Positions 44,939-53,713 of a DNA stretch of 64,000 nucleotides are shown in pieces. Position numbers and translations under genes: made by a program. The notes below the pieces were generated by a model. That model did no database searches. It saw only the letters and a list, made by a program, of their open reading frames with translations, and was not told where the DNA came from. Position 1 is the stretch's first letter; the number at the start of each line of letters is the position of its first letter. The stretch lies in assembly GCA_044356295.1 (NCBI GenBank), contig JBIKWN010000005.1, positions 7,176-71,175 of the forward strand, read 5' to 3'. This DNA comes from Bdellovibrionota bacterium (GTDB lineage: Bacteria; Bdellovibrionota_C; UBA2361; JBIKWN01).

Positions 44939-44972
44939 GATTGGTTTGTGATAGTGGTATGCTATTAAGTGA

Positions 44973-45059
44973 TTTTTTGTAACGCGAAGGTCGCGAAGTA
45001 CGCGAAGGAATTAAATGTAATCCTTCGCGTACTTCGCGACCTTCGCGTTACAAAAAAAA
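44973..45059. repeat. About 85-bp near-perfect palindromic repeat element, copy 1
   Basis: TTTTTT-gtaacgcgaaggtcgcgaagtacgcgaaggaatta-aatgt-aatccttcgcgtacttcgcgaccttcgcgttac-AAAAAAAA. The arms differ by a single unpaired base. It occupies the 120-bp gap between the convergent Snf2 gene and the CitE-like gene. Near-identical copies lie at 51463-51549 and 53714-53800. Confidence 0.9.
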
Positions 45060-45061
45060 TA

Positions 45062-46009
45062 CTACCCAACCCGCTTCAAAACATTCCAGTAATACCGAAA
45101 TGAAGCCCGATCATGAAGTCTATCTTTATAAGAAATAGGTGCCCATTGAGCATTCTTAGCAAGAGTGAGGATCTCTTTAGCAGTATCTACTTCCTCAGCG
45201 CTTGGAGACATTGCGTTTAGTATAGGTTGAATCTGATTTGGATGAATACTCCACATACGAAGGAATCCAAAATGATGTCTTGCTCGAAGTGCGTCATCAT
45301 ATGCAGAGTCTGGATTTTTATAATCTACGGTAACATTGTGAGCAGGGATAATATTATTTCCAAGGCACGCCGCAACAAGACGGCTTTTTGCCCTCATCAG
45401 GATTGGATGCTCGAACTGTTCAGGACTTTGAAAACATTTATCTGATAATGCACCGTGATGGAATGAAACAAAATCCATACAACCAAAATCTAAACCTCTA
45501 AGGAGCGGAAGCGAAGCAATCTGCCATACTTCTTCGACAGCTTTTGGTGTTTCGATAAGAAAATGAATCGGTGGAATTGATACTTTACTCGTATCGCATT
45601 CTTTTTTGTAAGTATCGATAACAGTATCAATAACTTTCTGTCCTTGTTCAAAAGACAAAATTTTTGGAATTGTAAGATGAGAGATAATACCAAAAAGATT
45701 TTTTGCTACAAAATTTAGGTCATCACTAAAATGAGAAGATAGGGGATCATGAATTCTAACCCCAATTTTTTTATAAACATTTTCAGAAGAAGAAATAATG
45801 TTTAAAAAAAGTTGTCTCAACGCAGTTTCTTGTCCTACTGAAGCTCCATCTTCAAGATCACAGGTAATATCGAAACTACCTTTGAAGATCTTTTGCGTTT
45901 CAATACTTTTTAAAATTAATTTTTCATGACCTGCATAATGATCACATGCAGAGCATGAAGGAAGTGGTTTTTCATTTGGAAAAAGTATTGAATCAAGATT
46001 TTCAAACAT
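45062..46009 (-). CDS. HpcH/HpaI aldolase / citrate lyase beta-subunit (CitE)-like protein
   Basis: The C-terminal FGFLRMWSIHPNQIQPI matches the CitE/malyl-CoA-lyase WxIHPxQ motif; the rest of the fold is not independently verified. Confidence 0.55.
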   Translation of the reverse strand: MFENLDSILFPNEKPLPSCSACDHYAGHEKLILKSIETQKIFKGSFDITCDLEDGASVGQETALRQLFLNIISSSENVYKKIGVRIHDPLSSHFSDDLNFVAKNLFGIISHLTIPKILSFEQGQKVIDTVIDTYKKECDTSKVSIPPIHFLIETPKAVEEVWQIASLPLLRGLDFGCMDFVSFHHGALSDKCFQSPEQFEHPILMRAKSRLVAACLGNNIIPAHNVTVDYKNPDSAYDDALRARHHFGFLRMWSIHPNQIQPILNAMSPSAEEVDTAKEILTLAKNAQWAPISYKDRLHDRASFRYYWNVLKRVG

Positions 46010-46025
46010 ATGTAGTAACTTACTG

Positions 46026-46463
46026 TTAACTGTGACGATAAATACTCAACGGATTAAAATTTTTATCGTGAGCTATTCGTAAAGAGCAAAGTTGTCCGAC
46101 GTGGTAGCTTTCGTGTAAGACAATATAATCTGACAACAGCTTTAAAGAATTGACGTTCTTTGATTCCAAAGCATTGGAAATCGTTTTGGATCTTTGGTGT
46201 TGATATTCTGTGAACAAGGATTGAAAAGTGCCTTGTTTGTTCAGATAACTTCCCCATTCGTGAGTTTCGGAATTTAACTGCTTCTCAATGGCTTCAAACA
46301 GCTCTAGGAAATGAGCCAAGGTGAGTCTAGGACTCATCAGGTCAGGCGAGAGGGTCGCTTCATAAAGATTTTCAGGCAGACCTTCAAAGACTTTTTCGAC
46401 CTGAAAACCAACTATTTCTAGCTGATATTGTATAAGTTCTATTGAGCCCATATGAGATGCCAA
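46026..46463 (-). CDS. DinB/YfiT-like hypothetical protein
   Basis: 145-aa helical protein with HxxxH/HESYHVGQ features like the DinB_2 family. This is a weak call. Confidence 0.35.
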   Translation of the reverse strand: MASHMGSIELIQYQLEIVGFQVEKVFEGLPENLYEATLSPDLMSPRLTLAHFLELFEAIEKQLNSETHEWGSYLNKQGTFQSLFTEYQHQRSKTISNALESKNVNSLKLLSDYIVLHESYHVGQLCSLRIAHDKNFNPLSIYRHS

Positions 46464-46552
46464 ATACTAGCCGAAATTCCAAGTTCCGTCAGCTTGAATT
46501 AATTTAGCCCTTCCGGTATTCTTCTTATCCGCTTGTTTTGCAAGCACTGTAT

Positions 46553-46629
46553 GGAGCCGTAGTTCAGTTGGTTAGAACGTCCGCCTGTCACGCGGAAGGT
46601 CGCGGGTTCGAGTCCCGTCGGCTCCGCCA
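46553..46629 (+). tRNA. tRNA-Asp (anticodon GTC)
   Basis: 77 nt: GGAGCCG acceptor stem, AGTTGGTTAGAAC D-arm, anticodon loop CTGTCAC (GTC), T-arm GGTTCGAGTCC, and a 3' end reading CGGCTCCgcca. Confidence 0.95.
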
Positions 46630-51549: not shown

Positions 51550-51605
51550 TATCTTCAATTACTTTCTACCGAGCAATAGTGACCTTTAGGGGACAGTGAC
51601 CTTTA

Positions 51606-51696
51606 GGGGACGCTCACCTTTATAAGCCACTGTAATCACTTGGTAGGAATAAATTATCTCTAAAGATTTCAAACAGTTATAAAGGTGAGCGTCCCC
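51606..51696. repeat. Inverted pair of the 20-bp motif GGGGACGCTCACCTTTATAA separated by 51 bp
   Basis: ggggacgctcacctttataa at 51606-51625 and its exact reverse complement ttataaaggtgagcgtcccc at 51677-51696. A tandem partial copy (gtgacctttaggggaca) lies immediately upstream, at 51579-51595. Confidence 0.85.
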
Positions 51697-51706
51697 AAGA
51701 TTCTGA

Positions 51707-51734
51707 TTAACTTTTTGGGCTAAGTAGTCGATCT
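51707..51734 (+). promoter_or_regulatory. Candidate sigma-28 (FliA)-type promoter for the flagellin gene
   Basis: TTAACTTTT-N11-GTCGATCT against the consensus TAAAGTTT-N11-GCCGATAA. It lies about 95 nt upstream of the flagellin ATG and immediately after the inverted-repeat element. Confidence 0.35.
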
Positions 51735-51828
51735 TACGTGTGATGAGAACCCTTTAAGGGGGATCTTGCGCCTGTGGCGTATTTAAAGAGTGTGTGTGTA
51801 AAAAATGCAAAAGGAATTGCAAACATAA

Positions 51829-53685
51829 ATGCCAATCACGATCGCTAGCAACATAGCGTCGCTTGGTGCGCAACGACAACTTGGAAAAGTTTCCGAGTCG
51901 TTAGGTAGTACCTACGAGAGGCTCTCATCAGGAATGAGAATTAATAAAGCATCAGATGATGCTGCAGGGCTCGCAATTGCTTTAAGTCTGAATTCAGATA
52001 CAAGAGTATTTACTCAAGCGGTAAGAAACTTAAATGATGGTATATCGTATCTATCAATCGCTTCTGGAGCACTTGATGCCCTTTCAACTATAGTCATTAG
52101 GCAGAAAGAATTAGCAGAGCAATCTGCAAATGGAACTGTTGGCCTCACGCAACGAAAAAGTATTCAACAAGAGTCAGATGCATTAACAAGAGAATATGCT
52201 CGTATTACTGCAACTGCTACGTTTAATAATCGAAAAATATACGAAGATAATTCCAATAACTTACTATCGTTACAAACAGCCTATAGTGCGATTACATATA
52301 ATCTTGGGCAGTCTCTTGCTGATTATCGTGGTGATGGGACTTTCTCGAGTGGGACAACTGTGGATAGTGCTACATTTTTGGGGCAAGTAGTAATTGCGGA
52401 CCTCAATAATGATGGGAAACAAGATATTATACAGGTCAGAGGTACTGGTGGAAATTTAAGGTATCAACTCGGAAATGGTGATGGAACTTTCCAAAGTGTC
52501 ATTCAGCTTAGCACTGGAAATAGTCCAATTTCAGTATTAGTTGATGATTATAATAAAGATGGTTTCAAAGATTTTGCGATAGTAAATTCACAAGGTAATC
52601 TGCGTGTTGCTTTACAAAATAGCAATGGAACTTTTGGAACTTTTGTTACTTATCAAGGTCCACTTGGAGCAAACACCATGCAGTTAACATCTGGTGATTT
52701 TGATGGTGATGGTATTACTGATCTTTTTTATCAACACGGAAGTTTTACAAGTTGGGTCTTAAGAGGAAATAGTGATGGTAGCTTTCAAGCCCCAGTGACT
52801 GCAGCTAGCACCCTTTTTAATAGTACCGTAAAAGTTGCTGATTTTAATAACGATGGAAAATCTGATTTAGTTTCGATTACATCTGGAACACTAAGAACAT
52901 TTACTTCGAATGGTGATGGCACATTCGCAGTAGGCGCAACAATCTTCTCTGGAATTACCGGTTCAGTTACAGCAGATGTAGGTGATTTTAACCGAGATGG
53001 AATTCAAGATATTGTTTATTCAGATACCACATCTGGGAGGGTATATCTTGCCATTGGTAATGCAAATGGAACTTTTCAAGCTTCTATATCATTCACATCT
53101 TCAGGTGCAAACCCAGGCTCCATAACGACTGGGGATTATAATGGAGATGGATTAGCAGACATAAGTTATCTCACAACTGGTTCAACATCGTTAAGTATTC
53201 GTTTAGGTAATGGTGACGGTAGTTTTCGGGCAGAGACATCATCAGCAATAAGTACTAATGGATCATTTGCTTTTGGGGATGTAAATAATGATGGCTCTGT
53301 TGATCTTGTTTCAGTGAGATCCGATTCCAATTCTAGTGCTCTGTATCTGCAAGGCACACGAACAGAATTTCAAGCAGACTATTTATATCTTTTAGACCAA
53401 AAGAGTGCCCGAAATGCCATCGATCAACTTGAAACAATTTTTAATAAAATTTCTCAAGAACGTTCAATAGTCGGTGCTTCTCTTTCTAGAATTTCAGTCG
53501 GTATACAGACGCTGTCGGATGCAGCGCTACAGTATAAAGCTGCTGAATCAAGGATAAGAGATATTGATGTTGCAGAAGAATCATCAGAACTTACGAAACA
53601 ATCAATTCGCCAACAAGTTGCTGCTTCGATTCTTGGACAAGCTAATCAGCAGCCATCTTTGGCGCTTAGCCTCTTACGATCTTAA
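51829..53685 (+). CDS. Flagellin with a seven-repeat FG-GAP (integrin-alpha-like beta-propeller) insertion in the variable central region
   Basis: The N-terminal D0/D1 region MPITIASNIASLGAQRQLGKVSESLGSTYERLSSGMRINKASDDAAGLAIA... and the C-terminal D1/D0 region ...LSRISVGIQTLSDAALQYKAAESRIRDIDVAEESSELTKQSIRQQVAASILGQANQQPSLALSLL are classical flagellin. Between them are seven D-x-N-x-DG-x-x-D repeats (ADLNNDGKQD, DDYNKDGFKD, SGDFDGDGITD, ADFNNDGKSD, GDFNRDGIQD, GDYNGDGLAD, GDVNNDGSVD), each followed by Gly/Thr/Phe-rich strands. Confidence 0.8.
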   Translation: MPITIASNIASLGAQRQLGKVSESLGSTYERLSSGMRINKASDDAAGLAIALSLNSDTRVFTQAVRNLNDGISYLSIASGALDALSTIVIRQKELAEQSANGTVGLTQRKSIQQESDALTREYARITATATFNNRKIYEDNSNNLLSLQTAYSAITYNLGQSLADYRGDGTFSSGTTVDSATFLGQVVIADLNNDGKQDIIQVRGTGGNLRYQLGNGDGTFQSVIQLSTGNSPISVLVDDYNKDGFKDFAIVNSQGNLRVALQNSNGTFGTFVTYQGPLGANTMQLTSGDFDGDGITDLFYQHGSFTSWVLRGNSDGSFQAPVTAASTLFNSTVKVADFNNDGKSDLVSITSGTLRTFTSNGDGTFAVGATIFSGITGSVTADVGDFNRDGIQDIVYSDTTSGRVYLAIGNANGTFQASISFTSSGANPGSITTGDYNGDGLADISYLTTGSTSLSIRLGNGDGSFRAETSSAISTNGSFAFGDVNNDGSVDLVSVRSDSNSSALYLQGTRTEFQADYLYLLDQKSARNAIDQLETIFNKISQERSIVGASLSRISVGIQTLSDAALQYKAAESRIRDIDVAEESSELTKQSIRQQVAASILGQANQQPSLALSLLRS

Positions 53686-53713
53686 GGGGGACGCTCAGAT
53701 TTTATAACTTTTA

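Follow-up and report, generated by a model that had tools for sequence, protein, structure and literature searches.

We analysed a 64,000-nt stretch of contig JBIKWN010000005.1 from a Bdellovibrionota bacterium (hereafter the window), in which a short motif recurs outside genes and two of its copies form an inverted pair upstream of a flagellin gene. This pair, a perfect 20-bp inverted repeat at 51606-51625 and 51677-51696 with a 51-nt spacer, ends about 10 nt before a sigma-28-like promoter, as an earlier note on this DNA had described it, and most probably represents a doublet of a repeat element rather than a site of flagellar regulation. We put at about one half the probability that the motif is one unit of a non-autonomous repeat of the repetitive extragenic palindromic (REP) type, occurring as singlets, tandem copies and inverted doublets. 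This reading builds on the significance of the window copies, on members of the same family in other genomes, on a strictly intergenic and stop-adjacent placement, and on the hairpins that the pairs form.

The core of the motif reads GGGGACGCTCACC(TTTATWA); the consensus quoted in the earlier note spans 26 nt and not the 22 bp given there. Allowing up to three mismatches, the 14-mer AGGGGACGCTCACC matches the window eight times against 1.39 matches expected, a count reached by none of 100 shuffles. We also scored the window with a 24-nt weight matrix built from 17 motif copies, all from organisms other than the window's source, and compared the results with the best score of each window shuffle (95th percentile 13.8 bits, maximum 15.9 bits). 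Four copies exceed any shuffle: 51602-51625 on the plus strand (27.5 bits, the highest score in the window), 47801-47824 on the plus strand (25.8 bits), 51677-51700 on the minus strand (21.7 bits) and 53683-53706 on the plus strand (18.4 bits). They are beyond chance because their scores of 18-27 bits lie above the shuffle maximum, and with them the proposal of a recurrent motif family stands. Two plus-strand copies, 51396-51419 (13.5 bits) and the partial 51585-51608 (11.5 bits), are probable family members; the former is borderline by the matrix, yet has an exact 14-mer in common with 51605. Two further places listed as degenerate copies, 44948-44969 at the Snf2 stop codon (-31 bits) and 51751-51772 (about -10 bits), are not copies.

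All window copies are intergenic and lie between 47.8 and 53.7 kb, within a 6-kb variable region linked to a tRNA-Asp gene. The singlet at 47801-47824 (copy D, GATAGGGGATGCTCACCTTTATTA, one mismatch in the 14-mer) has a core that begins 2 nt past the TGA of a 312-aa open reading frame (ORF), to which it adds a second stop (TGA TAG), and it is placed 76 nt upstream of a BrnA-like gene. At the other end of the region, the singlet at 53683-53706 (copy E, TAAGGGGGACGCTCAGATTTTATA) lies 1 nt from a stop, the flagellin TAA being fused to the motif, and about 8 nt before a repeat unit that holds the third of three long palindromes described below; this copy is also found in an independent assembly (L065). 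The claim that the copies at 47804 and 53686 begin 1-2 nt past the stops of the 312-aa ORF and the flagellin was thus correct. The singlet at 51396-51419 (copy A, TTCAGGGGACGCTCACCATAACTT), which carries the exact 14-mer, keeps the core without the CTTTAT tail and is located between an adenylosuccinate-synthetase-like gene, whose stop is 150 nt upstream, and palindrome 2, about 54 nt downstream. More doubtful is a decayed candidate at 48643-48656 on the plus strand (copy F, AGGAGACGCTCACT, two mismatches in the 14-mer), reported earlier as 48639-48656: it is indeed fused to the TAG of an open frame of about 110 codons, 4 nt from the stop of a convergent AAA_14/DUF4143 gene, but its 6.0 bits are not significant alone.

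The inverted pair itself, at 51606-51696, consists of copy B (51602-51625, plus strand, TTTAGGGGACGCTCACCTTTATAA) as its left arm and copy C (51677-51700, minus strand) as its right arm, the latter terminating about 10 nt before the flagellin promoter. Immediately 5' of copy B, an exact 17-nt tandem duplication of AGTGACCTTTAGGGGAC (51581-51614, plus strand), read directly in the sequence, yields the partial copy B' (GGGGACAGTGACC at 51589), which accounts for the 11.5 bits at 51585. The doublet arms have no mismatches in the 16-mer, whereas the singlets have one, two and two. Folding of 51575-51710 gave a long hairpin of -45.7 kcal/mol (z = -4.85); no U-tract follows the doublet on either strand, no direct repeat flanks it, and a consensus terminator scan made no call there.

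The unit is an imperfect palindrome of about 19-24 nt, TAAAGG-GGACGCTCA-CCTTTA, in which a short A/T-rich inverted repeat flanks a conserved asymmetric 9-nt centre; the consensus TAAAGGGGACGCTCACCTTTATTA reads as AAAGG-G-GA-CGC-TC-A-CCTTT. Variation between copies falls mostly in the central three bases (CGC, CAG, TGC, CGT), and a GC-to-AG variant, GGGGACAG, is present in the window as well as in two of the external loci introduced below (L062 and L064). A unit such as AAAGGGGACGCTCACCTTT folds into 5 bp, a mismatch, 2 bp and a triloop (-3.5 kcal/mol as DNA, z = -3.9); the window singlets do not retain the 5' AAA and fold less strongly. Stop codons are built into the unit: its 5' edge supplies TAA or TAG, and one frame of the opposite strand reads TAA-TAA-...-TGA. 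A long ORF ends 1-9 nt before the GGGG at 47805, at 53687 and in most external cases. Only this length of about 19-24 nt is conserved, while flanks and interiors vary.

Family members occur well outside the source genome. A genome collection holding one genome per species was scanned with the 18-mer GGGGAYGCTCACCTTTAT and returned 64 loci, from which three 8-kb loci carry the family: L060 (JBOHZO01) and L064 (DASSUY01) from Steroidobacteraceae metagenome-assembled genomes (MAGs), and L062 (CAWFNJ01) from a Gammaproteobacteria MAG. A metagenome scan gave two further contigs, the GC-rich L075 and the AT-rich L074. The 16-19-nt core is found at at least two separate intergenic sites in each of L060, L062, L064 and L074, and four copies occupy one site in L075; these external loci (at least two sites per 8 kb) were selected on the motif. 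No motif copy was found in 170 kb of loci not chosen by motif, and none of 59 loci with a single coding or chance match had a second copy. Most of the 64 loci, and L042 likewise, were set aside as coding coincidences unrelated to the motif: the 18-mer encodes GDAHLY and its reverse complement KGEHP, and the genes in question, recognised by eye, are presumably thymidylate synthase in the first case and a formiminotransferase-like gene in the second. The same 16-mer is thus present in a 38% GC Bdellovibrionota-like genome and in GC-rich Gammaproteobacteria (to about 65% GC). For orientation, the best named relatives of the leucyl-tRNA synthetase (LeuRS) encoded in the window share only 64-67% identity with it and carry the labels Bdellovibrionota, Bdellovibrionales, Oligoflexia or 'Deltaproteobacteria'; judged by this, the source organism is probably not a gammaproteobacterium.

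All nine external sites are intergenic, most with an upstream stop codon within 9 nt, and their neighbours are unrelated housekeeping genes (glycosyltransferase, amidohydrolase, BacA, epimerase, LysR regulator, saccharopine dehydrogenase). Two arms abut with zero spacer in L060 at 4569-4600 and in L062 at 7675-7706, and inverted arms lie 12-47 nt apart in L062, L064 and L075. In L075 two tandem plus two inverted copies fill the whole gap between two convergent stop codons, L060 holds partial tandem copies at 7630-7688, and L074 carries a complete 65-nt unit twice with identical interiors. Folding energies at the external sites range from -24 to -106 kcal/mol (z between -4 and -18), and the external pairs end in CCCCUUU(U), a tract of three to four U after very stable stems. 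When six elements were aligned in both orientations, only the arms aligned, except for the two identical L074 units. In L064 the palindrome reaches 37 nt outside the motif, which therefore is not its terminus; the doublet there is nested in a nearly perfect palindrome of about 130 nt (507-653, -106 kcal/mol) that begins near the stop of the gene upstream. The end of contig L060 lies 9 nt beyond a copy, as is expected of contig ends at repeats.

These features resemble those of REP sequences, bacterial interspersed mosaic elements and REPINs, the hairpin-forming REP doublets that REP-associated tyrosine transposases (RAYTs) mobilise (Bertels & Rainey 2011, PMC3116915); these, too, are short imperfect palindromes, strictly extragenic and usually just 3' of genes. 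Singlets, tandem copies and hairpin-forming inverted doublets are likewise common to both, as are a doublet better conserved than its singlets and the absence of target-site duplications and of coding capacity. For REPINs that paper reports a doublet that is the replicating unit and is better conserved than the singlets, which decay; mismatch-free doublet arms next to singlets with one or two mismatches match this pattern, and we therefore read the pair at 51606-51696 as an intact doublet and the singlets (47805, 51400, 53687 and possibly 48643) as decaying remnants.

We propose that the unit would spread as a non-autonomous element mobilised in trans by an enzyme encoded outside the window, and that its copies would survive almost only in the first few bases past a stop codon, because a unit that brings its own stop codons costs little when inserted at the very end of an ORF. 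In this way the family may have colonised the intergenic gaps of the tRNA-Asp-linked variable region. An inverted doublet, once transcribed, would give a very stable 3' hairpin, which could protect the mRNA 3' end, terminate transcription or block the terminating ribosome.

The earlier note had also considered that the inverted pair might be a 91-bp miniature inverted-repeat transposable element (MITE), which comes nearest of its three readings in that the architecture is that of a REPIN-type doublet. The unit shares with MITEs such as the Neisseria Correia elements and the Tn3-derived TIMEs (Tn3-derived inverted-repeat miniature elements) its 91-bp length, its 20-bp perfect terminal inverted repeats and the absence of an ORF, and such elements can likewise give stop codons or hairpins to neighbouring genes. 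It differs in that its interior is unconserved and that singlets and tandem copies are common. Terminal repeats are present in the window pair and in L075, while the palindrome extends beyond the motif in L064 and the arms abut in L060 and L062. Target-site duplications of the inverted-repeat unit were looked for and no convincing one was seen at any site: the doublet flanks are CTTTA/AAGAT in the window, GG/CA in L062 and TG/AA in L060, and a TA/TA reading is feasible only in L074 and L075, where it is inseparable from the palindrome itself. Since there is neither a target-site duplication nor a conserved interior, we class the motif as REP/REPIN-like and not as a classical MITE. The arms start with GGGG as do the ends of Tn3-family transposons, but they measure 20 bp and not 38 bp and lack the inner TAAG. 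A likeness to Tn3 ends (GGGG...ACGCTCAG) and one to the 3' end of 16S rRNA (TAGGGGA...TCACCT) both need gaps and fail in the external consensus, and were treated as coincidences.

Several observations weigh against the REP/REPIN-like reading. Among the ORFs of 110 aa or more in the 64 kb, none matched RAYT, IS200-like, Y1_Tnp or other transposase families, and a transposase family was also absent from ten genes checked beside external copies. RAYT-linked REPs typically carry a conserved GTAG or GTGG tetranucleotide at their 5' end, and here this head is absent, the bases before GGGG being TAAA, AAAA, GAAA, AAGA, TTTA, GATA or TCTT. The core is identical from the 38% GC Bdellovibrionota-like genome to GC-rich Gammaproteobacteria, a phylum-level distance, unlike REPIN-RAYT systems, which are described as being for the most part inherited vertically and specific to a lineage (bioRxiv 10.1101/2022.05.22.493013; PMC5581495). 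Arrangements also differ between sites within one external genome (spacers of 0, 12 or 43 nt), a variability of the doublet spacer not typical of REPINs, and these differences are as compatible with a short functional motif that accumulates as with the copying of a unit. Within the window, the copy-bearing region comprises 1,766 nt of intergenic DNA and the other 3,028 nt of intergenic DNA are copy-free, the singlets hardly fold alone, and neither an empty-site polymorphism nor a transposition intermediate was seen. The closeness to stops (1-9 nt) and the supply of stop codons by the unit itself are further differences from known REPs.

If the motif is mobile, it would be a REP-like repeat able to pass between phyla without any change in its core and to settle a few bases from stops, both of which are unusual for REP/REPIN sequences, and it would offer a tractable case for learning how mini-elements move and whether stop-adjacent hairpins set mRNA 3' ends or affect terminating ribosomes. 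A tentative alternative, which we hold with clearly less conviction, is that the motif is an undescribed 'portable stop-and-hairpin' mini-element that spreads horizontally, or the target of a widely transferred DNA/RNA-binding or HUH-type enzyme, and that it inserts at or beside stops. Given an identical core in bacteria from 38% to about 65% GC, such an element would stand outside both the vertical REPIN-RAYT systems and the classical MITEs.

Rather unlikely in our judgement, but kept as the main rival because it fits both the identical core across taxa and the differences in arrangement from site to site, is a short functional site that does not move and accumulates where it is tolerated. 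It could be similar to an uptake signal, or be recognised by a DNA- or RNA-binding protein that has spread horizontally, and inverted pairs would at the same time serve as 3' hairpins, like the DNA uptake sequence (DUS) of Neisseria. As a matter of general background, the Neisseria DUS and the uptake signal sequence (USS) of Pasteurellaceae are motifs of about 10-20 nt with unconserved flanks, often found as inverted pairs downstream of genes, where they form terminator-like hairpins. In agreement with this explanation, conservation is limited to about 19 nt, flanks and spacers show no relationship even inside one genome, target-site duplications are lacking, the motif is a near-palindrome with a variable centre, as in a site bound by a dimer, and the core is the same in very different genomes. 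Known uptake sequences, however, are lineage-specific and frequent inside genes as well, whereas all nine external sites and all window copies of the present motif are intergenic. The 65-nt unit of L074, present in two copies with an identical interior, behaves as if copied and pasted, and no candidate binding protein was identified.

We regard as improbable that the motif is a site-specific recombination site at gene-cassette boundaries, similar to the attC sites of integrons, by which the tRNA-Asp-linked island was built gene by gene. The island-assembly proposal of the earlier note finds support in one respect: each plus-strand gene or module of the island (the 312-aa orphan, the BrnA-like gene plus a remnant, the adenylosuccinate-synthetase-like gene and the flagellin) has a plus-strand copy behind it, in three cases fused to the stop. 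The region is missing from relatives, and its content is cassette-like, with an orphan ORF devoid of homologues, an antitoxin, and a PurZ/PurA-like gene with a phage-family match. Like attC, the motif is an imperfect palindrome at gene 3' ends that often overlaps a stop codon, and in the window it points the same way as the plus-strand genes of a variable region in which orphan and toxin-antitoxin genes occur. On the other hand, none of the ORFs of 110 aa or longer across the 64 kb matched Phage_integrase or another recombinase family, island genes lie on both strands so that cassette orientation is not uniform, no attI is present, and the external copies lie amid ordinary housekeeping genes and not in arrays. 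The ends of an attC palindrome carry the core sites R'' (RYYYAAC) and R' (GTTRRRY), and no RYYYAAC or GTTRRRY was seen in the arms, which end in TTTATAAG and CAGTTATAAA; GTTATAA and TTATAAG fall outside these patterns.

Very improbable, and largely refuted by the external family, is that local duplication of segments in 3' flanks, each a module of motif and palindrome, produced all the copies, which would then have no wider meaning. The units of palindromes 2 and 3 are indeed 97% identical over 111 nt with a motif copy before each, but the homology of the modules starts past the motif, at distances of about 41 and about 8 nt, copies D, B and C have no adjoining palindrome, and the motif is present in unrelated genomes that lack such a palindrome.

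The weakest explanation of all, also very improbable, makes the motif an operator or enhancer for a regulator of the island genes, with the inverted pair controlling the flagellin promoter: the pair ends about 10 nt before the sigma-28-like promoter TTAACTTT-N11-AGTCGATC (about 51707-51733), a fliA gene lies within the window (20442-21197) and copy D is upstream of the BrnA-like gene, but the robust or probable copies at 47805, 51400 and 53687 stand at gene 3' ends, external copies sit between convergent stops (L075, L060), where no promoter exists, and beside genes unrelated from genome to genome, and the best flagellin homologue with readable DNA (L082, 38% identity) is copy-free within 19 kb. 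The shared operator suggested earlier is accordingly not favoured, and an association with flagellin as such was rejected on the same homologue. Readings of the motif as a sigma-70, extracytoplasmic function (ECF), MerR-type or T7-like promoter were also dropped, given the misfit in spacing and the external copies between convergent genes.

Searches of further collections found the motif in none of the places covered. Viral contigs had no match to the 20-mer or to ARGGGGACGCTCACCTTT, BLAST searches of plasmids and phages with the window doublet, palindrome 1 and the L075 element gave chance-level matches only (E about 1 or higher), and the motif strings met only unrelated primer sequences in the full-text literature. 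With Rfam 15, at gathering score and with E up to 5, tRNA-Asp alone passed, and the matches at the motif and at the palindromes were generic, sub-threshold microRNA-hairpin ones.

The 85-bp palindrome, of which the window holds three copies, is a repeat separate from the motif. Palindrome 1 (44973-45057, with 37-bp perfect arms and an 11-nt loop) has no real motif copy beside it, the matrix being negative at 44948. Palindromes 2 (51466-51549) and 3 (53717-53800) lie inside 111-nt units (51454-51564 and 53705-53815) that a repeat search and pairwise alignment showed to be 97% identical, the second of which folds at -52.8 kcal/mol. Three motif copies had been placed upstream of such palindromes; two are so placed (51399 before palindrome 2, 53686 before palindrome 3) and the third is not. 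A composite element of motif, spacer and palindrome is not upheld either, as the distance from motif to unit is about 41 nt in one module and about 8 nt in the other and the arrangement is therefore not fixed; since the homology between the modules begins after the motif and the spacing is unequal, the apparent composite consists of two families of repeats, each of which settles in 3' flanks. The 85-bp palindrome was present in none of the external motif-bearing loci and had no match in plasmid, viral or other fetched DNA, and its arm gave chance matches only, in GC-rich coding DNA. A T-run precedes the stem and an A-run follows it, the reverse of an intrinsic terminator. Each arm is made of three tandem units of 9-10 nt (CGCGAAGGT, CGCGAAGTA, CGCGAAGGA), and the short-read contig L065 ends within palindrome 3.

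The region that holds all copies and palindromes (44.9-53.9 kb) sits between a Snf2 helicase gene and a livHMG-leuS block. Its successive features are an HpcH-like lyase gene (minus strand), a 145-aa ORF of no known function (minus strand), tRNA-Asp(GTC) at 46553-46629 on the plus strand (ARAGORN; Rfam tRNA 73.9 bits), the 312-aa ORF, the BrnA-like antitoxin gene, an open frame lacking a proper start, the AAA_14/DUF4143 ATPase gene (minus strand), the adenylosuccinate-synthetase-like gene, the flagellin gene, which encodes 618 aa with an FG-GAP insert, and a 673-aa ORF, likewise without assigned function (minus strand). The GC content of the window is 35-43%, and outside this region it is dense housekeeping and flagellar DNA with motAB, fliLMNOPR, flhBA, flhF- and flhG-like genes and, at 20442-21197, the gene for the sigma-28-type sigma factor. 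In relatives whose LeuRS is 88, 77 and 76% identical, the region is absent, there are zero copies in 56 kb of their DNA, and other genes (an aminotransferase, an efflux operon) stand directly upstream of livH. The motif copies thereby mark a recently acquired variable region beside tRNA-Asp, and the motif either came with imported DNA or colonised a permissive, gene-poor patch.

Some features of this region deserve mention in their own right. Directly after the tRNA-Asp gene, about 130 nt (46630-46760) are unusually GC-rich and carry GCCCTGA three times in tandem; this stretch has no Rfam match and could be an integration-site remnant or a small RNA. The 312-aa ORF (46864-47802, plus strand) is an orphan: a search of 5.8 billion proteins returned nothing but the ORF itself, no family could be assigned from Pfam, NCBIfam or PHROGs, and a single-sequence AlphaFold model was unusable (predicted local distance difference test, pLDDT, 34). 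Behind the BrnA-like gene, 48264-48644 (plus strand) is an open frame of about 110 codons whose first start codon is at 48462 and which is preceded by a short open stretch in another frame; judged from its sequence, it looks like a frameshifted remnant of the gene for the BrnA partner toxin.

The adenylosuccinate-synthetase-like gene (49900-51249, plus strand) is a divergent paralogue that scores 197 bits against a cut-off of 402 for the purA model. It matches PHROG 1211 ('2-aminooxy adenylosuccinate synthetase') at 7e-67 and PurZ weakly, and the GC content is 0.434 in 50001-52000 against 0.35-0.41 in the other 2-kb bins. The enzyme may be of a phage type or resemble PurZ, its gene being carried in the variable region.

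The flagellin (51829-53685, plus strand) belongs with flagellins of about 620 aa that have an FG-GAP beta-propeller insert between their N- and C-terminal helical domains and that returned more than 100 metagenome matches; the best of these are only 38-44% identical to it, and another contig from the same sample carries a tandem pair of such genes. Convergent with it, the 673-aa ORF (53841-55862, minus strand) has no Pfam family; near its N-terminus, residues 28-166 weakly match ECF-type sigma factors (NF058625, E = 3e-4), and the roughly 500 residues that follow are unmatched. Finally, the flagellin 5' leader holds at 51751-51772 the small self-complementary stretch CCCTTTAAGGGGG, which resembles only the left half of the motif and could be a leader hairpin, for example for post-transcriptional control of the flagellin.

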